Shown in pieces: positions 1 through 44,326 of a stretch of DNA of 44,326 nt (within the stretch, counting starts at the first letter, position 1; each line of letters opens with the position of its first letter). The notes beneath the pieces were generated by a model. That model worked only from the letters and a program-made list of their open reading frames with translations. It searched no databases and had not been told where the DNA came from. A program made the translations under genes and the position numbers. Source of the stretch: Candidatus Omnitrophota bacterium (GTDB lineage: Bacteria; Omnitrophota; Gorgyraeia; Gygaellales; Profunditerraquicolaceae); the NCBI GenBank assembly GCA_040754615.1, contig JBFMBZ010000081.1:1-44326 (forward strand), read 5' to 3'.

Positions 1-3000
1 TACTAAAACATATACATTTTTATTGAGCTTCTTAAGCAGGTTTTGACAATTAACTGTAAAATCATCGGTTAACTCCAGTTCGTCAGAAACAAATTTCTGT
101 TCTGGTCTGCAGCCTTGCGTTTTTAATAAATCTATTAATTTATGCATCCAATGCGGCCTGCTTAAAGCTCCCACCGCAAATAGATCTTCATAAAGGCCGA
201 AACGGTACAGGCCATAGTCTCTTTTAGTCATAAGCATTATTTCCCAGGGCCCTGTCTTTCGGTCATAAAAATTGATGTGCAATGCCTCATAGCCTTTATC
301 CCGCCTTTCTTTTAGCTCAACTTCGAAAATTACGCCTTTCTTCTTAAGCCAAAGCTCAATCTCATTTTGAATTTTAGTGCGCAACTTAAGAGCCTTTGTA
401 ACTATCATCACCCCATTAAGGTCATTTATCTCTTCGGGATGCTCATATTTTTCCTTAGTGGTGCTTTCGACCTTATCGTAAATGGCAGCTATGCTCTTCT
501 TTCGATAATTTACTTCCACTTCTTTCTTGCGTTTATGCGTAATTCTTTTCCTTAAGTCTCTGACCAAAGGCAGGGCCAATTCTTCAAGCCGGTCATAATC
601 AACCTGATGGTTTGAATTTATTGCTTCCTTTATCAGGTTATACTCTTCGGGATTGCTTAGTTGAAAGGCGTAATCGCGCATCTGGCTGTAAATCCAGAAT
701 ATAAGGCGGCCGGTTAACGGAGCGTATATATGCGATATCATTTTCGCCCTCACTATTCTGCGTTTCTCTGGCAGGCTAAGAACCCCCTGTATTTTATCCG
801 CTAACTCGAATAATAGCTCAGCGCTGTTTTGCCCTCTTGACTGCGCTATAAAATTCATATAATTCTGCAGCGTATCCTCTGTCCCGAAGATATCCGCCCC
901 CTCTCCCAAATAAGGATAGTTGGTTTTCTGTACCCTTGATATAGCATCATATACGCATTCGGCGTCCTGTTCTGAAAGCACTTCTGAAAGCGCCTCTTTT
1001 AATATGGCTAAATCAACCTTATGCAGTAGCCCAATAGATATCCCCTGTACATTGCCCCCTAATAAAGCAACGATAAACGCCACTGAGGTGGCATGATGCA
1101 AATAACTTTCACCGTCCGGGAAGTTTTTGCCTTTACAGCCTCTTTCAGCTATGGCATAAATTCTTTCAATGCAATTAATCTCCCCTCGCCTTCTGTTGTG
1201 GCAGTTCTTAATAAATGCTTTTACTATTTCCGCGCAAGGAGCGGGCTTTCCTAAAGTATCCGAATCTATCATAGACAATGTCATCGGGGAGCCAACAATG
1301 CTATTTTCTAACATCCTTGTGGCTGCGTCCTTTACGGTTGGATTGGTTGAGCCGGAGATAATCTTTAAATGCGGCCTTGCGGGTTCTTCCTTTCTTATCG
1401 AGCTGGAAGCGCTTTGGCCGACAAATATTAATATCTCTTTTGCCTGCCATTCGGTTAAATCAGACCAGTTTTTAGCTCCGAAGGAAGCAAAGGATAAACC
1501 GCGCCCGTTCAGGCGCTGAGCAATTCCGTTTATATCGCCCGCAATCAAACCAAAGGCCCCTCCTTTCACCATAGCCCGGCTGCTGTAAGCCAGGACCCTG
1601 TTCATATCCACCGGCATAAGGCCTTTTGGGTTCCAGCTCGTCGTAGTATTAGGCAATGTGGTAATGCCCCTGCCGATTCCTCCGGAATGGATTATGCAAG
1701 CCATCTGCTCTAGGGGTCTTTCAGCAATAGAAAAATCATTTCCCTCTGCTGCCACCTTTAAGCCGCCGCTCTCTATTTCCACCTTGCTTATTTCATCGCC
1801 TGCATAAACACAGATGAGTTGCTCCGCAGGAATACCGAATAAAAGATTAACCAGCCTGCGGCCCGTAACTGCTCCGACTGCTTTTGAATCAGGTGAAATA
1901 TCTATAGTGGTATCTCCTCCGGGCTGGGCAGCTATTATCACCGGTTTTATTTTGCCAAAATCAGGGGATAATTTTTTAATTGCCGCGAAACAACGCCTAA
2001 CCTCTGCAACCTGTGCCGCAAGGACGTATACTTTTATATCTTGCGCCTCCGGGCCTTTAAGGATTATAGACCAGGGTTCTTTTGTGTCATTATTTATTAA
2101 GCCAGTTAACTGCTGAAGCACAGCTTCAGGATTACTTAAAATCAGGCCCATCAGCATCGCCTGTAACGCGCGTTTTCTCATCAACGGCCTGGGGTCATAA
2201 TCCCGGTTCTGGTCAAGCCTTCCCGGAGGTATTACAGCTGCTGCTGCAAATCCTGTAACCTTGTTTTCTTTCGCATCAAATTCCGGCTCGCGGCGCTCAA
2301 ACTGATGCCCGTAGACCCCCTTCTCTATGAAAGGCATAGTTATCCGGCCTGCCAGCTCTATTAACAACCCTGTTAATTCATCCATTGAATTCTGAAATAC
2401 TTTTACATAACCCTTCCCTTCCCTATAGACAAAAACAGCGTTCCCGGAAGCAGCGCCGATAATCAGCCTGCGGAATATCTGGTTAGTGTCATCTGAAGTG
2501 CGTGACAAACCAGTCATTATTTCTGCTAAAGTTAATATGCGCTCCACCTGCTGATAAGGCTCAATGGTCTGTTTCCACGGCCCTTCAAAGGCTTGGCCGG
2601 TAATAATCTCTTTAAGCAGCTGGCCCTTTAGAAAAACCCATCCGATATAGGCCATCCAGGGGCTCTTCGGTGTTCCGGCAGCAGTAATTGTGCCGTCCAT
2701 ATCTTTCATGATTAATATGATCTTATTGGCAGAGAACGCCTGATGTAAAAACCGGATAAAAGGAACGGCTAAGGATGCTTCCCCGAGCTTAGAGAGATCC
2801 TTTTGCTTTGAATAATCTCTAATCATGGCTCTGTGATGCGCAATACTCTGCTTTGTTTTTCCTTCCAATATCCTCTTTGCCCTATAAAGCTGGAAGCCCA
2901 ATACTGCTTCAAGATTTATTAATCTTTCCTGCGCGGTAAGGCCTGCGCAAACCACTTCGAAAGGAAGAATAATCTGGATAAACTTGCCGTCATCTTCAAT

Positions 3001-6000
3001 AATGCCCAACCGGTCTGTATATTCTTTTTCCAGCCTTTCTTTATTATTTTTTGTAGTAATTACTCTATTGCCGACGAATTTTGCATCCGTCTCTTGAGAA
3101 GACAAAATAAGAAGCTTCAGGGCCCTGGATTTACCCTCGCTTTCAAGGTGGCCTATTGTTACGGCTTTATCCAAAGAGATATCAGCGCTCTCAATTTTGT
3201 TTCCGGTTGTATTTTCAACCGCCTTGCGCACCGTGTACTGGAACCAGATTTCATCCTTTCTTTTCCCTTCTAACCAATCCGGCTTTTTGCCTTTATTTAG
3301 CCAGGCAGCAAAATCTTTGACTAAATCACTACGGAACATAAGCTCAAGTGCGCTCTCCATGCCGAAACTCTCCCAGGACAACCCTTCCTTCTCTAAAAAC
3401 CCTTCAATCTCTTTATGGCGCTTAATTATGGTAAAAACTAAATGCGGGGTTAAGGCTTCTTTAGTGGAATCATCCAATAATTTCCAAATGGCCGATGCTA
3501 ATAGTTCCGGCATTGCCGCAATGGTACAATTATAAATATCCGGGTTTTGCCTCTGGGGCGTTAATTCCACGCGCATCATCTGGTTATCCGCGCTCACAAC
3601 TATTTCCCGCTCTCTTAATTTCTTCACGTCTTCTTGATCAGGAGTGTTAGCTCCTGCGTACCCGCCGAAATCTCCCCTGAAAGCCCTTTCCATTGTGCCG
3701 AATTCCGGCCGGGCAGCAAATAGCAGCGTCTTATCTATTCCGGCATTGCTATTAGCCAGAATTGCATTCCAAATTTTCTGCAAAGGATAACCTGCCATAG
3801 ATTCAATAAATTCAACGGTAGATTCCCACCAGGTCATCCCGCGGGTCTCATCGTCTTTAACCGGGTCAGTGAGAAGAAGCTTGCTTGCTTTCGTATTCTC
3901 TGCCATTGCCCTGACTAACCCTTTATTCTTCAGTAATATGCCCAGGCTCGTTGCCCAACTGCACAAGCCGGATAAAATAAGCCTGGTATTTCTTATAACC
4001 GGGATAACCCGGCTATGCACCGGGACATCAGGATAGTATGTGCCTATATCCGACATCCTGCAAACTTTGCGCTCTCTTCCTACTTGCAGGCCGTGCGGCG
4101 TATGCGAGTAATAGGCCTGCCCTATATATTCCTGTCCGTCCCTTCCCCTGATAAACATTTCATTCCCGTAAGGATTATCCAGGACTGCCAATGCCCTTGC
4201 TCCTACCAGCTTACGAAACTCAATCATCCCCGCATAAATACCATCGGGGTTCATAAATTCCTTTGCCAGGCCTCCGGTATAACTTTGTATCCCCTGATAG
4301 GTAAGGCCTTTTAGCGAGTTCCAATCGCAAGGTAGCCCCATCCTGTCCACTTCCCGGGCGTAATGTTTAACCTTAGCAAAGAACTCAAGGAATTCTGTTT
4401 CTGTTCCTTCCTGCCTGGCGCTCTTTAACGCATTCTTGAGGCGGCCGTTTAATTCCTTTGCAAATGATTTTCTTTGCGCCCCAAAACGGTCTCCTAATAA
4501 TTTCTTAATTACCTGCGCGCAGGGAGCTCCTTCTATGATTCCTGCTTCCAGGTTAACCCGCTCTATATCTCCGGAGGCTGCAGACAGGATATGCAAATGC
4601 GCCGCTCCAAATCCCCGGTTAATTAATGTTGCTCCGCCATTATCCGTGCCCCCGAGAACTACTAACGGATGATCGTCAATCATCTCTCTTACCATGCCGG
4701 TCATAGCAACTGCAGCTCCTCCTCCGGACCCAATTACTACCTCACGGGACAAATCAAGGTATTCTTTTCCTTCTTCAAAACTCTTCAAATCTTTTAGACG
4801 ATGCAGATTACCCAGGATAATGTGCACCTTTCTGGCTAAGTTTTCGGGGATTATAGAATCTTTACATTCTAATTCCCGATAGAATTCATTCTTTAAGGTT
4901 TCATTTCCGGCCCTGGCCAATTCCATCCCAACTGCTTGCGCAATTTTTAGAAACACCCCTGCCGCCTCAATTTTCACTTTTCGAGTAAGGAGTTTAACCT
5001 TTTCTTCGTTGTCAAATATCTCCCTGGGCTTATTAAATATCATTTCTTCCAAAGCATCCAAAAGTATGTTTGCTGCCAGCATAAATTCATTGCTCTTTAC
5101 TCTCTTTAATCCACGAAGCAGGGCAATTCTATTTTCTTCGCTGACTTCAGGGCTCACTAAAGCGTCAAGAATCCCTAACAGGCGCGCAAAACGGTATTTT
5201 TCTGCAGCGAAATCCGCCTCCCGGACAAATTCGAAAGCCGCATCCCTCGCCTTTTTAAACGCACGCCGGCGATAAATATGAATTAGACTCATCCCCACCT
5301 GCAGGTTAAGGCTAACCGCGTCCTTATTGGCTGCTTCCAGGTTTAAGGATATATAAACGCTATCGGCAGGTATCCGGCATTCAGGCCTCTGATTATCAGC
5401 CATTTTTTCCAGCGCGGAAATTGTCATATCAGTGTCAAAATCCTTCAAGCGGCAGGCTGCCTGACCCCTTATCCAGTAATAACCTTCTCCCATGGCTTGA
5501 TAATTTAATAAAAGGTCAACAAGTAATTGGTTTACGGCATTGAACTCTTCTTTTTCTTCGGGAACTCCTTCAAATTTAAGCGCTATGCCGGATATGGCCT
5601 TTAGAAGCATTGCCTCCATCGCGGTCCATCGCCTTATGGCGTTATAATAACTAAGTTTTTTAATATCTGACTTGGTGGCCTCTCTAGCGCCCTCTTTTCT
5701 CAATCGCTCAACTTCATTAATCATATTTTGCAGTTTCACGGCTTCGCGGTGCGCTTCCAGGCCTTTTTTGGCGAGCCCGCAAAGCGGCTCCATTGAATAA
5801 GCGCTGGCTAAAGCCCTTAGGCTGTCAATTGCCTGCATGCTCTCAAAGAAAATATCCTCATGCTCCTCTTCTTTCTTCTCCAGGGAAGCCGAATCATCAG
5901 TATCTACATTGTATTCAATTGCCCCAAATCCGTTTACCTTATCAAAATATGCCTTTGCCTGGTTTAATAATGCTAAGGTTAACCTTCCAAGCATGCCGTT

Positions 6001-39000: not shown

Positions 39001-42000
39001 TAAGCCAAGTTCCTCTAACTCTTCGTAGCTAAATATCTCCCAGCTGCCATTTTTATCCTTGAAAACAGTAAATTTCCCCGGCAAAGGCAGGGCTATGGAA
39101 TCAATATCTACGGGATTATGCTTAATATATTCTTGGGCTTCCTGCCTGGAATTAAACTGTAAGCCCCTTGACCAGGGCTCGAGTTGGTCAAATGAGCCTA
39201 ACCTTATATTCTGGGCGGAAGTAAGGCCCTGCGCGCGGATAACCAAATGCTGCCTGATTAGCTCGCGGATAAAAGAGTAGGCATTATAATAATGCCTGGT
39301 GTCGGGGTCAAAATCCATCCCCCTTAAAGATACAAGCTTATCCAGCGCCGTTAAGAAAACCGAGGAATTAAATTCGGTATTACTGAACACGTATCCGAAA
39401 TGGAGTTGCGCAATGATTTTATTTATGTGTATATTGGTGCGGCTTGATTCAAGGATGGTTTCAGCCTGAAGGATATGCCAATGCAGCCTTTCTTCCCGCG
39501 AAGGTACATTGACATCTTCATAAGCGTTGATATAGGAGATGAAAGAAAACTTGCCATTTTTATTTTTTATCGCTTTAGATAGGAATCTTTTAATATTGGG
39601 TTCTTCACCCGTGATTTTCCAGGCATAAATTACCCTGAATAATTCTCTAACAGCAAACGAAGGGGCTATTTTATCTATTTCAACCTCTATCATAGGAGGA
39701 GAGCGCGACTTTTCATTGGTAATATGGGCATTCTCATGCAGGATCCCCTCCAGAATAATTGATAAGAGCTGCCTTTTTTCTTCTTCATCAAGAGAGGCAT
39801 AAACCTCTGCTAATTTGTCAAAATAAATCCCGACCATGTATGTAACCATGCGCTGCCTGCTGGGGTGCATCACAGTATCCAGCAGCTCATTTATATTTGC
39901 ATCCAATAGAACTACATCCAAATCGCAAATCTTGCTTTGGGATTTAAGGCGCTCTATCTGGAAAACCAGATCTTTATAAAACTGGCTTTGCGCACCAATC
40001 TTCTGTATGGCAGACCATTTAGCAGTCCGGGGGATATCCCTTAACAGGCTCTTTACCCTGTCCTCTTTTATTAATTCTTCAATACGGTGGTTAATAAAAT
40101 CATGCTCATCTCCGCTTAGCCATCCTCCCTGTAGGCGTATAGCGCCGCCTACCGGGCTGGAGGATATGGCTTTTAGCCTTCTTTCTGCTTTGCTGCGGCT
40201 GAAATAAGTTTCCTTGCCAAATACCCTGATTAATCCGTTTTTCATTTCTTTAAGCGGGTGCATAGTCAAAAGGCCAAGCCCGTTAATCCAGGTTCTCTGC
40301 CCGTCTTTTTCAACAATAAATTTAAATTCATGCCCCCTTGCGTCGGGCTCAAGTTGCGCTGCCGGCACAATAACTGCGTATCTGCCGGGAACTATTTCTT
40401 CAGTAACTAAGGCATTGTGCTCCCAATCAGTAAAGTCAGCCGCAAGATATACCTTTGCCTCCTCCTTAGCCCTACAATGGAAAAGCATCCCCTCTTCTAT
40501 CTCAGAATTTGCCCTGAATCTCAAAAGCGCTTTATAAAGCGGGTTAATACTTATACCGGTTAAATCTTCAGGATAAATCTCTTCTCCCAAGGCAGCCAAG
40601 GCTTCTTCAAAGACTCTGTTTTCCAGCTCCCCTAATACGTCTTCGCTTATCCCTAAAATATCCAACGCATCTTTGCGCGAAGAAATTCCAAGCTTACGTA
40701 ATAAATTATACTGGGCTTCACTTACAATAAGCAGCGCATCATTATAATAGATAGGATCCTCCGTATAGTATTGGTGCAATTTTCCGTTTCTGGAGATAAG
40801 GTAACCGTATGACTGCACTCCGGATATTACAAAAACATGCCACTGTATGCGTTCAGTGGGCAATATCACAAAAACATAGTGCCCATAAGGCGGCAATTTT
40901 TCTATGTCCATCCCCGGGAAATTTCCCGCCCTTGCCCATAAATAATCATTCGTTACGCTGGTCACCGGGAAATTTAAGCGCGCATTCTTGCCTTTTCTGG
41001 AATTGAGGGTTTCTTTACTTTTCTCGCAAAACAGGCTTGCTATGCCGGCATAACCGATATTTCTTAAAACCAAACCCACGCCCTCGCATTTGATTTTGCG
41101 CTCTTTATAATCAACATAATCCATCCACCATTCATACACTGCGAAGCCCTGCCTGCTGTCATAGGCAACCAACTTATACATCTGAGCGCCCATAATAGGG
41201 TTATTCACTAATATTTTTTCTTGTAGTTTTTTCTGATCGAGCGCCAAAGTTAAGATTAATTCATTTTCTTCTCCAACTTCCCTGCATAACCAGTGCCATT
41301 CTGAACTCACAAAATGCCCCATCTCCAGCATGATTCTCTCTCCGCTTAGCTGGTTAGTCAGAGTAATTTTCTCCCCCTTCTCCCACTGTCTATCAAAAGA
41401 ACGCTTGCCTATCGGACTGCCGGCCTCTTTAGCATTTATCCCAATCAAAGTAAGCAGGCTTGACTCATGTTCATCCATGGTGCCTGTATGCAAGCTCTGG
41501 ACCAATCTTTCTTTATGATTATAGCAAGATGCAATAATAGTAGAACCGTACAAAGCCCATTCAAATTCTTCTCTGCTAAGGAAGCTGCGATAATAACTTT
41601 CTCCGGTAGAAAGGTCCGTTACCCGGATCATGCCGTCTTCCCTCCTGGTATCTTTGTAAAGCCGGTAATAAAAATCATCTGTAGATTTACTCACGATGAA
41701 TATAAATCCCCATGGCCTTACTACTCTTTGAATCTCTGCTATGATTTTCTTTAATTTCCCGACACTAAAATAATGCACTCCCAGGCGTATATATACAGCG
41801 TCAAAGGAATTATCTTCAAAAGGCAGTCTCTGTGCCATATCAATGGCCTGCGCGCTGATATCAATCCCCTGCTTTTTAGCCTGGTTAAGGACGAATTCTG
41901 CCTTCTCCCTGGTTTTGTCTGAGGCAACCACCTTAAACCCTTCTCTTGCTAAAAACAGCTCATCCGCCCCTTCGCCGCTGGCAAGAGATAATATGTCGTT

Positions 42001-44325
42001 CATCCCCCAGCTTGATTCATTGAACCCTCTGAGATAACCCAAGAAATCTCTCGCCGAAAGGCTTTCTTTGTATTCCAGCGGGCTTCCGGATTGTCCTGTT
42101 TTAATCTTAGGATGGCCGGTAAACGGCCCTTGCATAACCACCGCCATCCTGCAATTAGCGTACGTGAATCCGTGGGCTGTATTCGCATAGATAATAATTT
42201 TTTGCCCGGCAGTTAATTCTCTTTCTTCCCAATGCTGCCAGTTGGCATCAGCAAAAGACGCTTGCGAAACCCCGCCCGTAATTATGAGTATTTCCATATA
42301 ATTATCCGGCTCCTTATGCTTGTCTTCTACGCCATCAGCGGTCTTTACCCCTATACCGATTGCACCGCTGGTGATGGTAATAGGCAGCATTTTAGGCGGA
42401 TATATATTTGTTCCTCTATATATTATTGCTATTAAATTATCGTTATTGTCCGTAATAAGTTCCGGGCAGGGTATTTCTTCGGGGGCTTTCATTGGCCTTT
42501 GCTTGAGGTTGGGGATAATCTTTGAGTTGCCTGGGGGGCCGGTTTCAAAATTTACGCTTCCTTCTCTGATAATTGTTATGAATGAGCTTTCAATGGCATA
42601 TAATTTAGCCGCAGTAAATATGGTAATGATATCATTGCTGCTTAAAGTAACCTCCTTACCTTCCGGAAGCTTAATTTCTATTTTGCCTGAATCCACATAA
42701 ACCACCCTTTGCGACCTGCCTTCAAAAGGAACCTCTTCGCCTTCTGCCAGCGGCCTTGCTTCTAATACTAAAGGTAAATCTCCGTTACTGATGAATTCCT
42801 GTCCCCTGTTAACAACAGTAAACAACTCCGCTGAAACCGGGCTAGCCGCTCCGGAAGCTCCAATTAATTCCTCTTCTAAAGTGGCGCTGTCAATATCCCT
42901 TGCCTCCCGAACAGTCTCAAAGAATTCTTGCGAAAACCGCTTATCTTTTCGGTTAAGGAGCCCAATGATACTTTCTTTAATTATCTTACTATTTTTTATT
43001 TCTAATTGCGCGATTCTGGCATCCATTATCTCAAATGTCTTCTTCAAGGGCTGGTATTCAATGCCCCTCTGATGCTTTAATCTATAGCTATTAGTGCCAT
43101 TTTCAAAGATATCCGCTAATATCAAAATATCCAAACCAAGGATAAGTTCTTCTATAGATACTCCATGAGGCTCGGCGAAACGCCTGAGCTCTTCATAAGT
43201 AGACTCAAAGTAATGGAAGTGATTGGCGATTAACCAGTATTGAATGGGATTTAATATAATTCCCTTGTGCCTTAAAACTTCAAGCGCATAATACTCATGG
43301 CTCACCTCAAGGAAGAGGCCGCCTCTTACCCGTTTTCTCTTTGAGCCCTTAAGCCCTTCTTTATCCAGAATATATTCAATAAGCTGAGAAAAGATATCTT
43401 CATTACCGACAGGATGGTATTGTGTTTCTTTTGACATAAGGAAGGTTTTTACGTGAGCTTTTGTCGGCCCCTTGCCAATGCCGATATAACCCTTTAATAA
43501 ACCCTGATGCTTCTTAAAACTAGCATTGCGCTCATCAATTGAAGCATGACTAATATCTGATAAATCATGGACCAACGCTGCCCGGGTAAGATTTTTCAGC
43601 ATAGTCCAGCTCAAGCCCAACTTTTCTCCTATCGCGCCGGAATATTCATACACCCTATTCATATGCTGGCTATCAATATCCTGACGCTGATGCAAACTCA
43701 CGATATCTTTAACAGTCAACTCTGATAACTCCACCGGGCTACCCGCTGGCCTAGTAGTAGAAAGATGAGAATTAAATGCAATAATTATTGCGGCAGTTGA
43801 CCAGGTCCTGATATTGGATTCCCCAGTACCCATCTTATGAGATACTGCCCTAGTAACAAACCTTCTGCCTAACTGATTACCTAATTGAATATTTGTATCT
43901 CCACCATTAGATAACAAGAGAGCATCTTCTGAACCATACTGCTTCATTTTTTGAGCTACTTCCCAGGGTGTCGTTCCGCCCTCTAAATCTGCACCTTGGG
44001 CATAGATAATAACATCTCCTGTTGCGCTTAAGCCTAATGCAGAATGTGGATAGGACTGCTTAATATGGCGCTTGTCTGAGAATTGGTTTTCCATTCTAAG
44101 AATATTTTCTTTTGACTTTGCTTCTCCTTTTGAAACTATCTGCTGCCCAAAAAATGCCAAATCAACTTCATTGGTTATATCTTTTCCAGTTGCTAGCGCT
44201 ATTAACCTATCTTTATTGCTGTTAATGCCCTTTCTGAATCTTAAGTTTTCAATAGATATACCGCCATGGTTCCATACAACTAAAGAAGTATATATTCTTT
44301 CTTTCCCATTCTCTATTGCTAAACC
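1..44325 (-). CDS. Single giant modular ORF, open at both window edges (14,775 codons in window); multi-enzyme megaprotein fragment
   Basis: Minus-strand phase with codons at + positions 3k-2..3k has no in-phase tta/cta/tca in any line translated. Enzyme motifs stay in this phase from 44.3 kb to position 1. The ORF track has no minus ORF in this phase, as expected for an ORF with no stop in the window. The other phases give only short junk ORFs. Confidence 0.85.
91..570 (-). other. domain segment: RelA/SpoT-like (p)ppGpp synthetase (nucleotidyltransferase) domain
   Basis: Hand translation: YRKKSIAAIYDKV, DLNGVMIV, KGYEALHINFYDRKTGPWEIMLMTKRDYGLYRFG. This is the typical RxKS..S...K / D..G.R / GY.SLH...EIQ..T pattern. 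The ORF continues past position 1. Confidence 0.55.
640..1281 (-). other. domain segment: HD-like domain preceding the synthetase, with degenerate HD dyad
   Basis: ESYLHHATSVAFIVALLGGNVQGISIGLLHKVDLAILKEA. The position of the canonical LLHD reads LLHK. Confidence 0.35.
1282..1296 (-). repeat. inter-module junction motif VGSPM
   Basis: + strand cat cgg gga gcc aac read on the minus strand. Confidence 0.6.
1396..1410 (-). repeat. degenerate junction motif ASSSI
   Basis: + strand tat cga gct gga agc. Same position type as the canonical sites, but Pro is replaced by Ser. Confidence 0.3.
1720..2730 (-). other. domain segment: HAD-superfamily phosphatase-like (type IIB-like)
   Basis: KIILIMKDMDGTITAAGTP (DxDGT at 2689-2703) and a later YAGDEI...EGNDFSIAE (GD..ND-like motif). 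Confidence 0.5.
3780..4750 (-). other. domain segment: CofD/YvcK (UPF0052)-like
   Basis: VVIGSGGGAAVAMTGMVREMIDDHPLVVLGGTDNGGATLI followed by SAASGDIERVNLEA. This resembles the GGGTG...v.DdGGSsG...pGDiRn pattern. The C-terminal limit is uncertain. Confidence 0.35.
4760..6210 (-). other. domain segment: uncharacterised, apparently alpha-helical region
   Basis: Helix-rich, charged translation (for example EAHREAVKLQNMINEVERLRKEGAREATKSDIKK). No motif recognised. Confidence 0.25.
6211..6225 (-). repeat. inter-module junction motif AGSPI
   Basis: + strand aat agg gga gcc ggc. Confidence 0.7.
6226..7527 (-). other. domain segment: hexokinase/glucokinase family (eukaryote-type hexokinase fold)
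   Basis: YLGIDLGGSNLR, GFTFSFPV, INNDTTGTL, WGTGQN, EKMVSGQYLGELVR, VAVDGSLF, THDGSGVGAAIIAAV. Confidence 0.85.
7528..7542 (-). repeat. inter-module junction motif AGSPV (identical 14-mer aaccggcgagccgg at 7528-7541)
   Basis: + strand aac cgg cga gcc ggc. Confidence 0.75.
7543..8454 (-). other. domain segment: inositol monophosphatase / FBPase-like family
   Basis: DTHTEADKIANMRLSDIIRTHFPGHNIISEEE, YTWILDPLSGTLEY (canonical WiiDPiDGT with D to S), KPWDALPRAIMIEQAKG. Confidence 0.7.
8455..8469 (-). repeat. inter-module junction motif SGSPV (identical 14-mer aaccggcgagccgg at 8455-8468)
   Basis: + strand aac cgg cga gcc gga. Confidence 0.75.
8470..9291 (-). other. module of unknown function delimited by junction motifs
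   Basis: Translation VTLTDFTALEGWEPVLWKDE...FIVITTPSFPLGIGVKAPLAGEVGKPHIHTPLDLP...LLSGHNVAFPKDPKMIEIAVGPYPG. No family recognised. Confidence 0.3.
8478..8524 (-). repeat. 47-nt linker-coding repeat, copy 1 (encodes GPYPGSVEKAKIFFEE)
   Basis: caaagaata-t-ttttgctttttcaacagaccccggatacgggccaac. It has one mismatch to 14679-14725 and a 37-nt identical run. Confidence 0.8.
9292..9306 (-). repeat. inter-module junction motif SGSPV
   Basis: + strand aac cgg gct gcc gga (Ser as AGC). Confidence 0.7.
9311..9334 (+). repeat. 24-nt element copy (ggggaaggttctgttttcttcggc)
   Basis: Two mismatches to 9692-9715. Encodes EPKKTEPSP on the minus strand. Confidence 0.65.
9337..9351 (-). repeat. inter-module junction motif SGSPL
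   Basis: + strand taa agg cga gcc gga. Confidence 0.7.
9448..9504 (-). other. predicted transmembrane-like segment
   Basis: GLILVVCISAFSIAVIGII is an uninterrupted hydrophobic stretch of 19 residues. A second, weaker hydrophobic stretch FILITLAYLKLMSSFGAQLLG lies at 9619-9690. Confidence 0.45.
9511..9525 (-). repeat. junction motif variant AASPF
   Basis: + strand aaa cgg cga ggc agc. Confidence 0.5.
9518..9539 (-). repeat. 22-nt identical repeat, copy 1 (encodes KEAIAAS)
   Basis: gaggcagcaatagcttctttaa is identical to 16937-16958. Confidence 0.8.
9692..9715 (+). repeat. 24-nt element copy (ggggacggttctattttcttcggc)
   Basis: Same element at 9311-9334 (+), in inverted orientation at 18358-18381, and partially at 18287-18303. 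Confidence 0.7.
9693..9740. repeat. inverted repeat / RNA hairpin inside the ORF (16-nt arms, 15 of 16 paired, 16-nt loop)
   Basis: gggacggttctatttt (9693-9708) pairs with aaaatagaaacgtccc (9725-9740). It is followed on the sense strand by a U-rich run, cauuuauuuug. Confidence 0.7.
9907..9921 (-). repeat. inter-module junction motif SGSPI
   Basis: + strand gat agg cga ccc aga. Confidence 0.7.
9922..10968 (-). other. uncharacterised domain X, copy 2 (paralog of 13633-14652)
   Basis: YRKYLEEANRLGAL..., FPFILLFALLHELLETRE, FPVNPRFGMSLGMMLRQYNAGGFSDEEAITVLVGLGFEEREDVWYRVKEA. Collinear with copy 1. The antisense ORFs 9719-10315 and 13502-13975 in the track are also alike. Confidence 0.45.
10969..10983 (-). 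repeat. junction motif SGSPA
   Basis: + strand agc ggg cga tcc gga. Confidence 0.55.
10984..11568 (-). other. module of unknown function (charged helix, then a probably beta-rich region)
   Basis: RARAERKKTGTSRPRAKTEQEIEQERKKFYNELGKTRERLFGFWYGRTLFPVEFDTVKWP...VRRIEISYDKQGFCVICNAK...AIFRMKFDSSEDWRLVFTM. Confidence 0.25.
11569..11760 (-). other. domain segment: DnaJ-type J domain
   Basis: [64 protein letters not shown], with an intact HPD tripeptide. Confidence 0.85.
11990..12540 (-). other. domain segment: HEAT-like (PBS-lyase type) repeats
   Basis: FREALGGESSHLKANVIQTLGLLGPKAKDFFPDLREALEKEQDRNIRILILRALVNINLEAAIPILIEALDDLELFREAANIIVATGP. Confidence 0.55.
12541..12555 (-). repeat. inter-module junction motif SGSPV
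   Basis: + strand tac cgg cga acc gga. Confidence 0.7.
12556..13386 (-). other. domain segment: HAD-superfamily hydrolase-like
   Basis: MKVAAFDVAGTILKD (motif I with the second Asp replaced by Ala), IEIYLVSHISSN, QLVFVGDEPSDMIAADKTGIPGV. Confidence 0.55.
13387..13401 (-). repeat. inter-module junction motif AGSPV
   Basis: + strand gac cgg aga acc ggc. Confidence 0.7.
13402..13617 (-). other. short (72-codon) helical module between two junction motifs
   Basis: IKQSLKDLWKEFSLFIDETLEMHLESQKLNLTARAPLIIKFGSFLDYLLVKERIENLRRLMEIEEGSNSGSSE. Confidence 0.3.
13618..13632 (-). repeat. inter-module junction motif SGSPI
   Basis: + strand aat cgg aga gcc gga. Confidence 0.7.
13633..14652 (-). other. 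uncharacterised domain X, copy 1 (paralog of 9922-10968)
   Basis: CRKFLEQANSLGAL..., FPFDCVYALIHELLESRN, FPVNPGLGMGLSLIARKYNPDGLSEGIIVDSLISLGFREREGVWYRLRET. Confidence 0.45.
14653..14667 (-). repeat. degenerate junction motif SSSSL
   Basis: + strand aag aga gga gct gga. It sits directly after the conserved GPYPGSVEKAKVFFEE linker, exactly where copy 1 of that linker has SGSPV. Confidence 0.35.
14668..15630 (-). other. domain segment: class-I SAM-methyltransferase-like (divergent)
   Basis: GDIVADIGCEDDRLGIAIARN, ADKVILNDLL, LLEAKRILKPKGRIIVIEN. Confidence 0.4.
14679..14725 (-). repeat. 47-nt linker-coding repeat, copy 2 (encodes GPYPGSVEKAKVFFEE)
   Basis: One mismatch to 8478-8524. Confidence 0.8.
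15631..15645 (-). repeat. inter-module junction motif SGSPL
   Basis: + strand aag agg cga acc aga. Confidence 0.7.
15646..16929 (-). other. domain segment: PHP (polymerase/histidinol-phosphatase) family metal-dependent phosphoesterase
   Basis: QCDLHSHDFNSDG, LKAFSITNHD, KFSIAHPNE. Confidence 0.6.
16930..16944 (-). repeat. inter-module junction motif AASPV
   Basis: + strand cac agg tga ggc agc. Confidence 0.65.
16937..16958 (-). repeat. 22-nt identical repeat, copy 2 (encodes KEAIAAS)
   Basis: Identical to 9518-9539. The surrounding peptide GQRTNLTFKEAIAASPV parallels GAQRINLTLKEAIAASPF. Confidence 0.8.
16981..16995 (-). repeat. inter-module junction motif SGSPV
   Basis: + strand cac tgg aga gcc gga. 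Confidence 0.7.
16996..18066 (-). other. module of unknown function (helical)
   Basis: MEERDYEDSESALSRRNHYHPFKQRDDYLAAIRRAKERL...NRLTIIFHELLEEELPDQGF...HKEVEHANWLLSVHPYKYRIYSGPEDA. No family recognised. Confidence 0.25.
18067..18081 (-). repeat. inter-module junction motif SGSPM
   Basis: + strand cat cgg aga gcc gga. Confidence 0.7.
18287..18381. repeat. nested inverted repeats / RNA hairpins inside the ORF
   Basis: The outer arms ggggacggtt (18287-18296) and aaccgtcccc (18372-18381) pair over 10 bp. An inner 6-bp stem lies within 18309-18338. ggttctaattt is directly repeated at 18293 and 18338. On the sense strand the structure is followed by auuucuuuugg. Confidence 0.65.
18358..18381 (-). 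repeat. 24-nt element copy in inverted orientation
   Basis: The reverse complement ggggacggttatattttcttcggc has one mismatch to 9692-9715. Here it encodes GDGYIFFG instead of KKIEPSP. Confidence 0.7.
18427..18441 (-). repeat. junction motif variant ASSPF
   Basis: + strand aaa tgg gct gct tgc. Confidence 0.45.
18484..18498 (-). repeat. inter-module junction motif AGSPL
   Basis: + strand aag cgg gga acc ggc. Confidence 0.7.
18499..19700 (-). other. domain segment: pyruvate/2-oxoacid:ferredoxin oxidoreductase alpha-subunit-like
   Basis: [77 protein letters not shown]. Confidence 0.75.
19730..20286 (-). other. domain segment: 2-oxoacid:ferredoxin oxidoreductase gamma-subunit-like
   Basis: [45 protein letters not shown]. 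Confidence 0.75.
20287..20301 (-). repeat. junction motif SASPI between the OFOR beta-like and gamma-like parts
   Basis: + strand tat tgg aga ggc gga. Confidence 0.65.
20302..21250 (-). other. domain segment: 2-oxoacid:ferredoxin oxidoreductase beta-subunit-like (TPP-binding)
   Basis: [57 protein letters not shown]. Confidence 0.75.
21330..21585 (-). other. domain segment: delta-subunit-like 2x[4Fe-4S] ferredoxin domain
   Basis: NPEKCSHCLTCWLFCPDMAI...IDLDHCKGCGICAAQCP (two CxxCxxCxxxCP motifs). Confidence 0.8.
21586..21600 (-). repeat. inter-module junction motif GGSPI
   Basis: + strand tat cgg aga gcc ccc. Confidence 0.65.
21790..22290 (-). other. domain segment: TPR repeats
   Basis: NLGRVYRLLKEFDKALDCYQKIIESNPSDPQAYYYMGVTYLNLKKFSEAVEAFKASLEIFPDNPITNSDLGAAYAELGDFEKAGVVFRRAIQLDPKYARAHANLGMVY. 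Confidence 0.75.
22810..22824 (-). repeat. inter-module junction motif SSSPI
   Basis: + strand aat agg cga gct gga. Confidence 0.6.
22910..23158 (-). CDS. nested out-of-frame 82-codon ORF with its own RBS; hypothetical small protein or frameshifted relic of the module
   Basis: The ORF track gives MFNTYHFQDLEVTRILLRKDGIFAFAHHPSWWYEFDFLIQPNGSVQGKTSNDGWVEVSSQLAKFVKSKVQFLLIKKNLACFG. The composition is balanced and globular-looking. It is preceded by AGGAGG-taatgaa-ATG and by an in-phase TAA at 23174-23176. Confidence 0.4.
   Translation of the reverse strand: MFNTYHFQDLEVTRILLRKDGIFAFAHHPSWWYEFDFLIQPNGSVQGKTSNDGWVEVSSQLAKFVKSKVQFLLIKKNLACFG
23159..23196 (-). promoter_or_regulatory. candidate RBS (AGGAGG, 7-nt spacer) and AT-rich TATAAT-like box upstream of the nested ORF
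   Basis: The minus strand reads ggTTATAATtattaataacaattttaaccAGGAGGtaatgaaATG. No convincing -35 box was found. Confidence 0.3.
23197..23211 (-). repeat. inter-module junction motif SGSPV (identical 14-mer aaccggcgagccgg at 23197-23210)
   Basis: + strand aac cgg cga gcc gga. Confidence 0.75.
23212..24012 (-). other. domain segment: HAD-superfamily hydrolase-like
   Basis: LKVFIWDWDLTIFK (DxDxT), KQYILTANS, NALIIGDGCGEMEAARK. Confidence 0.5.
24013..24027 (-). repeat. inter-module junction motif AGSPV (identical 14-mer aaccggcgagccgg at 24013-24026)
   Basis: + strand aac cgg cga gcc ggc. Confidence 0.75.
24028..24168 (-). other. 47-codon mini-module between two junction motifs
   Basis: SIENNIAGEFGSLREFIGNQFTFRGWWELNLCAAARYISFSPYAEGK. 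Confidence 0.3.
24169..24183 (-). repeat. junction motif SASPA
   Basis: + strand ggc cgg aga agc gga. Confidence 0.55.
24184..24909 (-). other. domain segment: class-I SAM-methyltransferase-like
   Basis: KGRRLLILSVASGRGLLEEVLKEEGHLVKAVEIDNDFVEILK, FDLVLFSECLGAL, LLKRNGLMLITE. Confidence 0.5.
24910..24924 (-). repeat. inter-module junction motif AASPV
   Basis: + strand aac cgg cga agc agc. Confidence 0.65.
24925..25340 (-). other. domain segment: GNAT acetyltransferase-like (tentative)
   Basis: VSWIFVRREYRNRQYEELLYKQLISYLLKNDYASLKLYVQVNEYLEIWRRMPGVK. Confidence 0.3.
25341..27252 (-). other. domain segment: GT-B fold, alpha-glucan phosphorylase (GT35)-like
   Basis: WQISSEIWNPAGGLGRVMQYHG, PPVIHINDAQLAP, LLADTTHTIRNRG, ENTEAAGYTEANIGACAGLQFSPPWNEG. 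The last parallels EASGTS.MK..NG, with Asn where the PLP lysine is expected. Confidence 0.4.
27253..27267 (-). repeat. degenerate junction motif AASAL
   Basis: + strand tag cgc tga agc agc. Confidence 0.3.
27268..28707 (-). other. domain segment: glycogen/starch synthase (GlgA-like, GT5), copy 2
   Basis: AASEMGGVIKEAGLGDVVAGLSAAL, IIHLNEWQTALAPLYL, TIHNIGYRG, GIRNGIDTRKWNP, RIVEQKGLHL, LIPSEYEPCNV, VVRATGGLDGIV. Confidence 0.8.
28708..28722 (-). repeat. degenerate junction motif ASSSI
   Basis: + strand tat tga gct tga agc. Confidence 0.3.
28723..30564 (-). other. domain segment: glycogen-synthase-like GT-B module, copy 1 (divergent, with insertions)
   Basis: FDVLHFNDWQTGLGPAYL, LFTTHNLEYQGVF, GGVYNGIV, RLVKQKGLDLL, LMPSRQEPGGIANLELAALG, SERGGLIDFV. 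Confidence 0.65.
30565..30579 (-). repeat. inter-module junction motif SASPV
   Basis: + strand tac cgg aga tgc cga. Confidence 0.65.
30580..31150 (-). other. uncharacterised domain Y, copy 2 (possibly 2H-phosphoesterase-like), paralog of 33532-34400
   Basis: PRDLLHSTIFAVVYD (HxTx-like), LIRIIFQGVNLGPDGCLFVEGHVYDENIFELKRRLTEAYPDVRRRTPLVNIALGRITDIISPDNFKEL, EVEVTRAALVTLQDRFGL. Confidence 0.2.
31700..32900 (-). other. domain segment: sugar-nucleotidyltransferase (GlgC/fucokinase-like) with beta-helix-like tail
   Basis: VVFKQAGGLGTRFTARLASKVLMPI, HEIIAFQEKPSKDEM, NTIFYHTIIGDDCYIEEGAQIYLSKLASGSRIGKGSAVF. Confidence 0.45.
33517..33531 (-). repeat. inter-module junction motif AGSPI
   Basis: + strand aat cgg gct tcc cgc (Ser as AGC). 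Confidence 0.7.
33532..34400 (-). other. uncharacterised domain Y, copy 1 (paralog of 30580-31150)
   Basis: IKIRLMGIGLTMRGEVFAEARFVDEQAAIGLLSRLRTEYPDERRRVHNPSIILARLVREVTPQEFKAL, EIEVFNAKLVTTQDEFGL. Confidence 0.2.
34740..36010 (-). other. domain segment: UDP-sugar pyrophosphorylase (UDPGP family)-like, copy 2
   Basis: NIISAGGKGTRYAEV, SWPDGHDSAF, YRYNFISNVDNRAA, TRFEPLKEN. Confidence 0.55.
36011..37380 (-). other. helical region preceding UDPGP-like copy 2 (paralog of 39001-40149)
   Basis: GPENKEELIRIVLEGFKHEQRHLELEG...EEEIEKVAPAHTARELYRLVFLDY aligns with LDEEEKRQLLSIILEGILHENAHITNE...EVEIDKIAPSFAVRELFRVIYAW. Confidence 0.35.
37381..37401 (-). repeat. degenerate junction (SSASSSI) between the two tandem supermodules
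   Basis: SSASSSIEKGPEGALRLLGGPLS corresponds to ISSSPVGGAIRLQGGWLS at 40150. Confidence 0.35.
37650..39000 (-). other. domain segment: UDP-sugar pyrophosphorylase (UDPGP family)-like, copy 1
   Basis: VVTISAGGRGMRYSKV, YWPDGHDSSF, YRYLFVSNVDNRAA, TRFEPLKEN. Confidence 0.55.
39001..40149 (-). other. helical region preceding UDPGP-like copy 1
   Basis: Continuous hand translation from 40149 to 39001. No family recognised. Paralogous to 36011-37380. Confidence 0.35.
40150..40164 (-). repeat. inter-module junction motif SSSPV
   Basis: + strand tac cgg gct gga gga (Ser as AGC). Confidence 0.6.
40265..40460 (-). other. domain segment: CBM48 / AMPK-beta-type glycogen-binding-like
   Basis: VYLAADFTDWEHNALVTEEIVPGRYAVIVPAAQLEPDARGHEFKFIVEKDGQRTWING. 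Confidence 0.4.
40465..41409 (-). other. module part of unknown function
   Basis: SFDRQWEKGEKITLTNQLSGERIMLEMGHFVSSEWHWLCREVG...YEWWMDYVDYKERKIKCEGVG... No family recognised. Confidence 0.25.
41410..41424 (-). repeat. inter-module junction motif AGSPI
   Basis: + strand tat cgg act gcc ggc (Ser as AGT). Confidence 0.7.
41425..42075 (-). other. domain segment: class-I SAM-dependent methyltransferase
   Basis: NDILSLASGEGADELFLAREGFKVVASDKT, AQRLPFEDNSFDAVYIRLGVHYF, IQRVVRPWGFIFIV. Confidence 0.65.
42076..42090 (-). repeat. inter-module junction motif SGSPL
   Basis: + strand cag cgg gct tcc gga (Ser as AGC). Confidence 0.7.
42091..42834 (-). other. domain segment: cupin-like (possibly bicupin)
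   Basis: VVYVDSGKIEIKLPEGKEVTLSSNDIITIF and YMEILIITGGVSQASFADANWQHWEERELTAGQKIIIYANTAHGFTY. Confidence 0.35.
42835..42849 (-). repeat. inter-module junction motif AASPV
   Basis: + strand aac cgg gct agc cgc (Ser as AGC). Confidence 0.65.
42850..43731 (-). other. domain segment: HD-superfamily metal-dependent phosphohydrolase
   Basis: SQHMNRVYEYSGAIGEKLGLSWTMLKNLTRAALVHDLSDIS...SHEYYALEVLRHKG...WLIANHFHY. Confidence 0.55.
43732..43746 (-). repeat. inter-module junction motif AGSPV
   Basis: + strand cac cgg gct acc cgc (Ser as AGC). Confidence 0.7.
43747..44325 (-). other. first (partial) module in window; weak resemblance to phosphodiester glycosidase (NAGPA/DUF2233)-type domains
   Basis: VVWNHGGISIENLRFRKG...GDVIIYAQGADLEGGTTPWEVAQ...ALLLSNGGDTNIQLGNQ. 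The resemblance is weak, and the ORF continues upstream of the window. Confidence 0.2.
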
Positions 44326-44326
44326 A

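Follow-up and report, generated by a model that had tools for sequence, protein, structure and literature searches.

Here we show that the whole of a 44,326-nucleotide contig from a Candidatus Omnitrophota bacterium (GenBank assembly GCA_040754615.1, contig JBFMBZ010000081.1, positions 1 to 44,326; hereafter the window) is, with a probability of about 0.8, an internal fragment of one protein-coding gene, a multi-enzyme giant of the Omnitrophota type. The encoded chain is built of units that exist elsewhere as ordinary separate genes, and a recurrent pentapeptide, [AS]-G-S-P-[VILM], stands between them. The gene is best read as coding for a punctuated multi-enzyme polyprotein, which may be processed at this pentapeptide. 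The giant gene itself is of a kind already described in Omnitrophota; the punctuation motif appears to be undescribed in the literature that we searched.

Six-frame translation of the whole window revealed no stop among the 14,775 codons of the minus-strand frame that begins at plus-strand coordinate 44325 (codons 3k-2..3k), thereby confirming by computation what the first-pass annotation, made from the letters alone, had claimed. The five remaining frames contained 455, 756, 940, 1156 and 1189 stops, and in none of them did an open stretch exceed 243 amino acids (aa). From the base composition of the strand about 0.063 stops per codon, or about 930 in all, were predicted by chance, and the probability of encountering none was computed to be about 10^-400. 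The RNY/G1 periodicity peaked in the open phase in 97/97 overlapping 900-nucleotide (nt) segments, with a smallest margin of 0.19, and both the composition and the entropy per 100 aa were those of globular protein over the full length. Matches to Pfam and NCBIfam families, from aa 45 to aa 14702, all fell within this frame. When each of nine chunks was compared with the rest of the window, codon usage correlated at r 0.91-0.96 and tetranucleotide usage at r 0.88-0.92, a homogeneity that gives no hint of a chimera. Since both start and stop lie outside the window, the gene has at least 14,775 codons, and its description as an internal fragment of a giant gene stands.

The listing of open reading frames (ORFs) that accompanied the sequence has no minus-strand entry in the open phase, as had been pointed out, and this is expected when a caller drops ORFs that leave both window ends. 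The plus strand carries 15 ORFs of at least 110 aa, sized 112-198 aa, the seven longest of which matched no Pfam family; they are the short antisense frames described before, and plus-strand genes were rejected as they had no family matches. Embedded RNA genes were rejected likewise, as the window contained no tRNA or Rfam family, and stop-codon reassignment was rejected as there are no in-frame stops to reassign. Tandem Repeats Finder reported no tandem arrays in the window.

Families were searched with Pfam at E≤1e-3 and with NCBIfam, and ten unannotated segments were searched again with Pfam at E≤0.5, which returned noise alone. In the numbering used here aa 1 is 44325..44323 on the minus strand, and aa i corresponds to window positions 44328-3i..44326-3i. 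The features along the chain are as follows.

1..44325, minus strand: single ORF of 14,775 codons, open at both window ends (0 stops; coding phase in 97/97 segments)
43888..44193, minus strand, aa 45-146: NAGPA-like phosphodiester glycosidase domain, marginal (PF09992, 25.3 bits against a cutoff of 25)
41653..41994, minus strand, aa 778-891: methyltransferase 1, dependent on S-adenosylmethionine (SAM) (PF13649, 53 bits; PF08241, 48.5 bits)
37405..40269, minus strand, aa 1353-2307: module A, about 950 aa, with a UDP-glucose pyrophosphorylase-like core at aa 1918-1998 (PF01704, 56 bits, partial)
34492..37518, minus strand, aa 2270-3278: module A', a diverged duplicate of A, with a UDP-glucose pyrophosphorylase-like core at aa 2911-2989 (PF01704, 41.8 bits; self-BLAST)
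31582..32592, minus strand, aa 3912-4248: fucose-pyrophosphorylase-like region, weak (PF07959, 19.9 bits, below cutoff)
28888..30384, minus strand, aa 4648-5146: GT5/GlgA-like module 1, diverged (PF08323, 38 bits; 26-27% identity to GlgA)
27280..28692, minus strand, aa 5212-5682: glycogen/starch synthase GlgA, full length (TIGR02095, 532.7 bits against a cutoff of 328, profile 2-476/477; PF08323, 238 bits; PF00534, 78 bits)
25840..26925, minus strand, aa 5801-6162: GT5/GlgA-like module 3, diverged (PF08323, 34 bits; TIGR02095, 38 bits)
24367..24699, minus strand, aa 6543-6653: methyltransferase-like 2, weak (PF13489, 23 bits, below cutoff)
23356..23967, minus strand, aa 6787-6990: HAD hydrolase 1, DWDLT motif kept (PF00702, 37 bits)
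21766..22245, minus strand, aa 7361-7520: TPR repeats (PF00515, 101 bits, plus others)
18559..21564, minus strand, aa 7588-8589: fused pyruvate/2-oxoacid:ferredoxin oxidoreductase (PFOR) of the four-subunit type (near end-to-end NCBIfam matches for all four subunits), with the parts PorD at aa 7588-7660, PorB at 7709-8006, PorC/gamma at 8016-8202 and PorA at 8225-8589 (NCBIfam, Pfam)
14968..15351, minus strand, aa 9659-9786: methyltransferase-like 3, weak (PF13847, 24 bits; NF047649)
13603..14667, minus strand, aa 9887-10241: module B, unannotated (no family; 42-46% identical to module B')
12613..13350, minus strand, aa 10326-10571: HAD hydrolase 2 (PF00702/PF13419, 36-38 bits)
12184..12426, minus strand, aa 10634-10714: HEAT repeats (PF13646, 36.5 bits)
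11569..11766, minus strand, aa 10854-10919: DnaJ J-domain, HPD intact at aa 10884 (PF00226, 73.6 bits)
9892..10968, minus strand, aa 11120-11478: module B', paralogue of module B (self-BLAST)
9448..9504, minus strand, aa 11608-11626: strong transmembrane (TM)-like segment GLILVVCISAFSIAVIGII (Kyte-Doolittle 19-aa mean 2.83, no charged residue)
7702..8427, minus strand, aa 11967-12208: inositol-monophosphatase (IMPase)/FBPase-family domain (PF00459, 64.9 bits)
6247..7518, minus strand, aa 12270-12693: hexokinase, catalytic motifs intact (PF00349, 120 bits; PF03727, 196 bits, 3-242/242)
1309..6207, minus strand, aa 12707-14339: CofD-like module, about 1,630 aa, comprising a divergent CofD/YvcK-like region and a HAD-like DMDGT region (37-56% identity to P0001-P0006 and L004-L010)
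220..1185, minus strand, aa 14381-14702: HD-like and RelA/SpoT-like nucleotidyltransferase region, divergent (PF13328, 28.2 bits; PF04607, 27.4 bits; TIGR00691, 75.9 bits, partial)

Thus, more than 15 unrelated domain types tile the chain, with a copy number of at most 3 (GT5, methyltransferase and HAD-type). The count of about 40 modules given earlier was too high: there are 23 domain-level matches in about 20 recognisable modules, together with several unannotated paralogous modules. The RelA/SpoT-like domain had been said to be still running at position 1; the open frame does reach position 1, while the match itself stops at aa 14702, 73 codons earlier. The characterisation of the units as enzymes of cytoplasmic type, rather than parts of an adhesin or a megasynthase, agrees with our searches. 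No condensation, adenylation, ketosynthase, acyltransferase or carrier-protein domain was found in the window by Pfam or NCBIfam, and a nonribosomal peptide or polyketide megasynthase was rejected as its defining domains are absent. A giant repeat adhesin (Ig-like, cadherin, RTX or TSP3) was also rejected, there being no such families, no tandem arrays and few, diverged paralogue pairs.

One feature of the chain that seems to be new is the pentapeptide. All of the following sites were found by the motif scan, and further support is named where it exists.

43732..43746, minus strand: PAGSPV (G at aa 195)
42076..42090, minus strand: SGSPL (aa 747), 31 aa ahead of methyltransferase 1 (boundary test)
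41410..41424, minus strand: AGSPI (aa 969)
33517..33531, minus strand: AGSPI (aa 3600)
24013..24027, minus strand: AGSPV (aa 6768), 19 aa ahead of HAD 1 (boundary test)
23197..23211, minus strand: SGSPV (aa 7040), past HAD 1
21586..21600, minus strand: GGSPI (aa 7577), 11 aa ahead of PorD (boundary test)
18484..18498, minus strand: AGSPL (aa 8611), 22 aa past PorA (boundary test)
18067..18081, minus strand: SGSPM (aa 8750)
16981..16995, minus strand: SGSPV (aa 9112)
15631..15645, minus strand: SGSPL (aa 9562)
13618..13632, minus strand: SGSPI (aa 10233), end of module B (self-BLAST)
13387..13401, minus strand: AGSPV (aa 10310), 16 aa ahead of HAD 2 (boundary test)
12541..12555, minus strand: SGSPV (aa 10592), past HAD 2
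10969..10983, minus strand: variant SGSPA (aa 11116), directly ahead of module B'
9907..9921, minus strand: SGSPI (aa 11470), end of module B' (self-BLAST)
9337..9351, minus strand: SGSPL (aa 11660)
9292..9306, minus strand: SGSPV (aa 11675)
8455..8469, minus strand: SGSPV (aa 11954), 13 aa ahead of the IMPase-like domain (boundary test)
7528..7542, minus strand: AGSPV (aa 12263), 7 aa ahead of hexokinase
6211..6225, minus strand: AGSPI (aa 12702), between hexokinase, which ends at 12693, and the CofD-like module, which starts at 12707
1282..1296, minus strand: variant VGSPM (aa 14345), end of the CofD-like module

The form [AS]GSP[VIL] occurs at 18 exact sites as compared to 0.10 expected, and 2,000 shuffles gave 2 at most. 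The chain has 22 GSP tripeptides in all, each preceded by S, A, G or V and followed by V, I, L or M with one exception (A), and beyond the five motif positions there is no conservation around them. Annotated domains contain none of the 22 (random mean 9.8; 0/20,000 permutations reached 0), and 9/22 lie within 25 aa outside a domain boundary (random mean 1.5; 0/20,000 permutations). From aa 6768 on, the pieces between motifs are of natural enzyme sizes: 272 aa for HAD 1, 537 for the TPR piece, 1,034 for PFOR, 282 for HAD 2, 524 for HEAT plus J-domain, 309 for the IMPase-like domain, 439 for hexokinase and 1,643 for the CofD-like module; the methyltransferase piece farther upstream (747-969) measures 222 aa. 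No motif was found between the four PFOR subunits or between the GlgA-type modules, and thus the motif parts functional units and not simply folds. Internal translation starts after the motif were considered and rejected, the next Met lying at a variable distance of +3 to +112.

The codons of the motif vary. All four Gly codons are used, as are both the AGY and the TCN families of Ser (with five AGY serines) and all four Pro codons, and such variation, with serine drawn from both families, argues for selection on the peptide. At the same time the usage departs from that of the gene: TCC makes up 10/12 as compared to 17% gene-wide, TCG 9/22 as compared to 8%, and CCG 16/22 as compared to 32%. 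The DNA consensus CCGGCTCGCCGG is a near-palindrome almost confined to junction codons, and this, together with the codon bias, suggests that the copies have a common origin or have recombined with one another. A DNA palindrome iterated genome-wide was rejected, since the consensus is hardly found anywhere but at coding-strand junction codons.

The correspondence between units and ordinary genes is closest for hexokinase. Hundreds of stand-alone homologues of about 440 aa came up when aa 11961-13160 were searched exhaustively and without a profile; one of these homologues, P0012, aligns end to end (residues 4-444 of 451 to aa 12265-12699 of the giant). The ends of the hexokinase piece and of stand-alone hexokinase agree within 7 aa on each side. 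The same domain also occurs within many multi-module proteins of 1-6.6 thousand amino acids (kaa), the named ones among which are all but one Candidatus Omnitrophota. Likewise, the CofD-like module occurs as a stand-alone gene of 1.7-2.1 kaa amid ordinary housekeeping genes (locus L001), and within fully open frames of 24.8 kb (L005), 16.7 kb (L008) and 18 kb (L010), in which the modules beside it show no alignment to the window. A word-indexed homologue search with aa 10700-12700 was uninformative, yielding two J-domain matches only.

With regard to affiliation, the C-terminal 1,475 aa matched six proteins at 37-56% identity, the named ones being Candidatus Omnitrophota, and a pattern scan of GTDB species genomes gave nine loci, of which six belong to Omnitrophota metagenome-assembled genomes (MAGs; 35-52%) and the other three to Endomicrobia (27-29%). 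The contig itself was present neither in these genomes nor among JGI metagenome contigs, two scans of which gave three distant relatives. For both the CofD-like module and hexokinase, the best homologues carry the name Candidatus Omnitrophota (47-56% identity), and the codon and tetranucleotide usage of the window resemble those of the Omnitrophota locus L005 (r 0.96 and 0.94, respectively). Published giants have the same Pfam set as the window, and the nearest homologues of these two modules come from Candidatus Omnitrophota MAGs. The remark in the first-pass annotation that comparable genes are known from Omnitrophota-like genomes is thus sound, and calling them essentially uncharacterised is still fair, though the class has already been catalogued.

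The relatives also indicate how such a gene may grow. The closest genome-derived relative, L005, is 51-52% identical over the shared CofD-like module and carries the motif 7-8 times in 8,278 aa, as compared to about 0.05 expected. The end of the CofD-like module bears a motif in the window (VGSPM) as well as in L005 and L004 (AGSPI/AGSPV), and the module that follows differs, being HD/RelA in the window and a receiver domain (REC) in L005. In L004 and L005, which come from independent assemblies, 3,442 aa line up in the same order at 72-82% identity. The two differ in one place: L005 has an extra receiver domain of about 133 aa (aa 4957-5108), placed exactly between two motif copies where L004 (second ORF, aa ~319) has a single copy. 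The sequences read ...AGHAA-GSPI-[REC]-KLA-GSPA-S-GSPV-TNGALARTQGE in L005 and ...AGHVA-GSPV-SNGAVARTQGE in L004. As judged from this alignment, the difference is a gain or loss of a cassette at the motif, and the cassette change together with the differing neighbour modules shows that the gene evolves by module shuffling at its punctuation points. The giant ORF of L004 is split by an in-frame TAA (nt 4838-4840) into called genes of 1,609 and 1,804 aa. This TAA replaces a Glu codon, GAA, that is kept in L005, the window and all homologues, and the frame stays open for 1,829 aa further; it stems either from an error in sequencing or from a nonsense mutation that arose very recently.

The [AS]GSP motif was absent from stand-alone homologues and from more distant giants, and other giants have pentapeptides of their own. 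P0083 (locus L014, 10001-27496) is a complete gene of 5,831 aa with housekeeping neighbours, identical in the ENA and JGI assemblies. It contains R[SA]E[AV]R 21 times, flanking a hexokinase, two acyl carrier protein domains and a receiver domain, and the codons of its motif vary with a bias to CGC-TCC-GAR-GYG-CGG. P0034 (6,020 aa) has about 17 dispersed sites of the GARLA type, and P0026 (6,580 aa) has nine RAE.R sites (RAE[RK]R); P0026 is the one protein of these three that carries an Omnitrophota name. No significant dispersed pentapeptide was found in L017, L010, L006 or most proteins below 4 kaa, so that punctuation pentapeptides are either not universal or undetectable in shorter chains. 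The AREAR of L008 was considered as a fifth punctuation motif and dropped, as it belongs to a local EAREAR tandem repeat.

Paralogues within the chain are 26-46% identical (33-43% for modules A and A' by self-BLAST), and there are no tandem repeats, which argues for growth by old internal duplication and not for assembly repeats. Several of the modules retain their signature residues. Both CxxCxxCxxxCP motifs of PorD are present, the GDG...NN thiamine pyrophosphate motif and the cluster cysteines of PorB are intact, and so are the hexokinase motifs LGIDLGGSNLR, NDTTGTL, VDGSLFE and DGSGVGAA; the K-x-G-G-L motif of GlgA is slightly changed, to KEAGL. The CofD-like label is used with reservation, as it relies on distant similarity. 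All 7 members of the alignment of this module of about 1,630 aa match PF01933 weakly and below threshold (best E 1e-4), and searches of PDB sequences with the module and its profile gave nothing significant. The AlphaFold2 model built from the 7-sequence alignment was poor (mean pLDDT 48), and its top Foldseek matches, UPF0052/FbiA structures, were non-significant and lend weak support at most.

Some further observations concern the fused PFOR, the TM-like segment and the DNA itself. The fusion order of PFOR is delta-beta-gamma-alpha (PorD-PorB-PorC-PorA). The usual PFOR operon has the order gamma-delta-alpha-beta and single-chain PFOR the order alpha-gamma-delta-beta, and to our knowledge the order in the window matches neither. 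Among the PorB homologues nearest to that of the window (50-63% identity over extein parts; P0220-P0282), many carry intein/LAGLIDADG domains (PF14890, PF14528), the named intein-bearing ones being Candidatus Omnitrophica and Aerophobetes; the PorB of the window has no intein. By Kyte-Doolittle hydropathy alone, aa 11608-11626 are the one stretch of the 14,775 aa that looks strongly TM-like. The piece that holds it is 190 aa long and bounded by the motifs at aa 11470 and aa 11660; the paralogous piece at aa 8611-8750 has no stretch as hydrophobic.

A 55-nt repeat, 95% identical, occurs at 8473-8527 and 14674-14728 (aa 11934-11951 and 9867-9884) and encodes AVGPYPGSVEKAK[VI]FFEE. It is the only near-identical DNA repeat of the window, its flanks are not detectably similar, and its copies end 3 aa ahead of a junction motif and 3 aa ahead of module B, respectively. 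It may stem from recent gene conversion or be the copied tail of a unit, and an assembly with short k might go wrong there. In addition, an element of about 28 nt is present in three direct copies (xPKKxEPSPF) and one inverted copy (NGDGYIFFGS), all in frame, at 18284-18384, 9307-9335 and 9688-9716. The inverted pair at 18284-18384 is predicted to fold into a stable hairpin (minimum free energy -48.2 kcal/mol for 131 nt, z = -4.7 as compared to shuffles). Complete multi-module relatives that contain the hexokinase or the CofD-like module (P0013, P0015, P0018, P0047, P0048, P0055, P0062, P0073, P0083, P0100, P0115, P0145 and P0147) have signal-peptide-like N-termini (MKK...hydrophobic...A), and many of them end in a similar short tail, ...[IVL]xxA/AA, e.g. 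FVLCAA, LISA and ALICA. The two ends together hint at a shared targeting or sorting signal.

We propose that the gene could act as an 'operon in one ORF', whose single product would supply enzymes for carbohydrate, energy and regulatory functions as a fixed set, with TPR, HEAT and J-domain adaptor elements interspersed among the enzyme units. The motif would be recognised by a cognate protease, of which the window shows no trace, and the chain would there be cut into unit-size enzymes; as an alternative within the same explanation, the motif may be a conserved inter-unit hinge, with the enzymes held as beads on a string. Since the enzymes need ATP, UTP, NDP-sugars, SAM, coenzyme A (CoA), Fe-S ferredoxin and DnaK, the modules would act in a cytoplasm, most parsimoniously that of the producer, or that of a host if the protein were delivered. 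A sharp lineage-specific motif, unit-sized pieces and a sole TM-like segment in a small motif-bounded piece all argue for processing, as do the peptidase domains reported in full-length giants. Cleavage at [AS]GSP[VILM] is nevertheless a tentative proposal, whose chance we place somewhat below even. The wider idea, that Omnitrophota giant ORFs are true polyproteins whose lineage pentapeptides are cleavage sites co-evolving with a cognate protease and capturing cassettes, we regard as rather unlikely, though worth keeping in view. If the polyprotein reading holds, a MARTX-like delivery of the enzymes into prey would possibly be part of it.

Several results weigh against the reading of the window as a punctuated multi-enzyme polyprotein. 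Pfam found no peptidase family within the window, and thus no cognate protease; L005 likewise gave no peptidase domain, nor does one appear among the Pfam families of the complete gene P0083. A protease that acts in trans or escapes recognition may still exist. Motif copies are sparse up to aa 6,700, where four of them leave pieces of 2.6-3.2 kaa. The codons of the motif are biased to KCC-GGC-TCG-CCG, so the DNA-level component is real and could be the primary cause. At a threshold as loose as E≤0.5, about 55% of the residues are still without a match in Pfam or NCBIfam, and no function is assignable there. Some units may have lost activity: the IMPase-like domain has DPLSGT in place of DPxDGT and is possibly degenerate, the first motif of HAD hydrolase 2 is FDVAGT (DVAGT for DxDxT), the second Asp missing, and the HD/RelA region has HK for HD and EIMLMT for EVQIRT. 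The chain may thus mix active enzymes with pseudo-enzymes. The relatives of the PFOR piece are 34-44% identical, and none has the same subunit order at above 58% coverage, i.e. there is no close relative. Affiliation by homology rests on two modules at about 50% identity, and continuity and extent on one assembly, the length of 14,775 aa being a lower bound. A purely cytoplasmic role is also strained by the signal-peptide-like N-termini of the complete relatives and fits poorly with the literature, which predicts most giants to be membrane-associated or exported.

The weightiest alternative to cleavage is that the chain stays uncut and works as one tethered multi-enzyme scaffold, the pentapeptide being a hinge or a translated recombination scar. 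The bias of the motif codons to one near-palindromic, nearly junction-only DNA consensus speaks for it, and so does the cassette indel between L004 and L005, which has motif copies on both sides, as recombination would leave them; no protease was found in the window, L005 or P0083, and J, TPR and HEAT elements would suit the recruitment of chaperones and partners. However, G-S-P is invariant at 22/22 sites despite codon changes, where a scar or hinge should tolerate replacements, and the motif is missing between the PFOR subunits and the GlgA-type domains, where hinges would be equally needed. Different lineages have different, equally sharp motifs, which is the pattern of protease/site co-evolution, and a lone TM-like segment in a 190-aa piece amid cytoplasmic-type enzymes would be topologically awkward in an uncut chain. 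We consider the uncut scaffold a real possibility, with the odds against it. At the other extreme, the open frame could be an artefact, produced by chimerism or mis-assembly of the contig, or by sequencing errors that fuse separate genes. The sequence does come from a single assembly, the 55-nt repeat could mislead a short-k assembler, and L004, close to L005, has one in-frame TAA. Yet errors or chimeras cannot yield 44 kb free of stops with more than 20 unrelated domains in one phase, and the composition is homogeneous. Moreover, relatives in independent assemblies have open frames of 16-25 kb, L004 and L005 are collinear, P0083 is the same in both of its assemblies, and giant ORFs are documented from complete long-read genomes. 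An artefact is therefore highly improbable.

Two further explanations place the protein outside the producing cell. West-Roberts et al. read giants with GT5, GT1, TPR and HEAT domains as exported, surface-anchored proteins acting on prey cell walls and sugars, and that published reading would extend to the window. It would be in line with the 94% of catalogued giants that have TM helices or a signal peptide (Nielsen & Lui 2026), with the N-termini of the complete relatives, and with the marginal NAGPA-type domain at aa 45-146. It is hard to reconcile with one strong TM-like segment in the whole fragment, and with enzymes that depend on ATP, UTP, ADP-glucose, SAM, CoA, DnaK and reduced ferredoxin with its oxygen-labile Fe-S clusters. 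Furthermore, no lytic transglycosylase, glycoside hydrolase, dockerin (PF00404) or lectin was found in the window, and SecA had no match in the window at E≤1e-3 or in the unannotated regions at E≤0.5. We find export to the surface quite improbable. A MARTX-like multi-effector polyprotein, delivered into a host or prey, cut there, and hijacking or draining its metabolism, would reconcile cytoplasmic-type enzymes with signal-peptide-like N-termini of relatives. Omnitrophota have been reported as predatory or episymbiotic (PMC10066038). The motif would suit processing sites between effectors, and the shuffling of modules seen among relatives recalls the arsenals of effectors. Hexokinase and sugar phosphatases could form an ATP-burning cycle, the RelA/SpoT-like region could act as a pyrophosphokinase, and the J-domain could capture host Hsp70; Tas1/toxSAS toxins are RelA/SpoT-like nucleotide pyrophosphokinases. 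Against this, no domain for translocation, pore formation or autoprocessing is present in the window, PFOR and GlgA in their full housekeeping form would be odd as toxins, and the idea is entirely a matter of deduction. It seems improbable to us.

The giant gene is a further, unusually enzyme-rich and nearly TM-free member of a class whose proteins have been catalogued but whose function is unexplained. The motif, bracketing units of natural size, offers concrete candidate sites for the question of whether and where Omnitrophota giants are cut. Should processing occur, bacteria would here be using polyproteins to run cellular metabolism, one product being cut into at least 20 enzymes and an operon being replaced by a single punctuated ORF. 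Should it not, the motif would still mark the recombination and hinge points that explain the growth of the gene.

Among described systems, the closest is the 'multi-enzyme metabolic cluster' class in the catalogue of 916 proteins of at least 10 kaa by Nielsen & Lui 2026 (bioRxiv 10.64898/2026.06.07.730766). The window shares with this class a length above 10 kaa, tiling by many Pfam families with none dominant, the families PF08323, PF00534, PF08241, PF13419, HD, PF03727, HEAT and TPR, and paralogous domains that are diverged at the DNA level without strict tandem repeats. It may differ in membrane association: by hydropathy this 14.8-kaa fragment, whose N-terminus lies outside the window, has one strong TM-like segment, and for members of the catalogue from 10 kaa upwards the average is about 22 TM helices, with about 2% of the residues of the class lying in such helices. 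As far as its accessible text goes, the preprint has no mention of a complete fused PorDBCA, and the terms cleavage, linker, junction, polyprotein, processing and proteolytic do not occur in it. Neither this preprint nor West-Roberts et al. 2023 (bioRxiv 10.1101/2023.11.21.568195) mentions a motif at junctions or linkers, and in the literature searched we found no paper that combines Omnitrophota with 'polyprotein'.

The second comparison is with the 'Archaeovorin-type' giants of West-Roberts et al. 2023, which have HEAT, GT5, GT1, TPR and glycolytic-enzyme domains. Their prototype is a 39,678-aa protein of Candidatus Velamenicoccus archaeovorus (Kizina 2022, cited in West-Roberts et al. 2023 and PMC10066038), and this protein has been detected by proteomics (Seymour 2023, PMC10066038). 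West-Roberts et al. favoured extracellular cell-wall degradation for these giants and proposed cleavage by C39/S8 peptidase domains, stating that the cleavage points are unknown; whether Omnitrophota giants persist as one chain or are cut into pieces is posed in the literature as an open question. Like that type, the window has PF13646, PF08323, PF00534, TPR, hexokinase and an IMPase/FBPase-family domain, and no dockerin. The size class of that type lies above 30,000 aa, for which the window gives a lower bound of 14,775 aa. Unlike it, the window does not show numerous TM helices, a SecA DEAD-like domain or an N-terminal C39/S8 peptidase, which may lie outside, and the cofactor needs of its enzymes misfit degradation of cell walls outside the cell.

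Established chains of independent units offer two further parallels. Viral polyproteins and MARTX toxins carry their protease (3C/NIa-type and CPD, respectively) within the chain, and their processing is demonstrated. The giant resembles them in being one long product of independently folding units that are separated by short lineage-specific sequences and exchanged between relatives; it is unlike them in that no protease domain was identified in the window, its processing is a proposal, and its cargo is housekeeping-type metabolism. AROM, CAD and fatty-acid synthase fuse 3-8 activities of one pathway in 2-4 kaa. The giant shares with these, and with single-chain PFOR (TIGR02176), the joining of enzymes or PFOR subunits in one chain, but unlike AROM, CAD and fatty-acid synthase it brings together at least 20 units from several pathways over at least 14.8 kaa.

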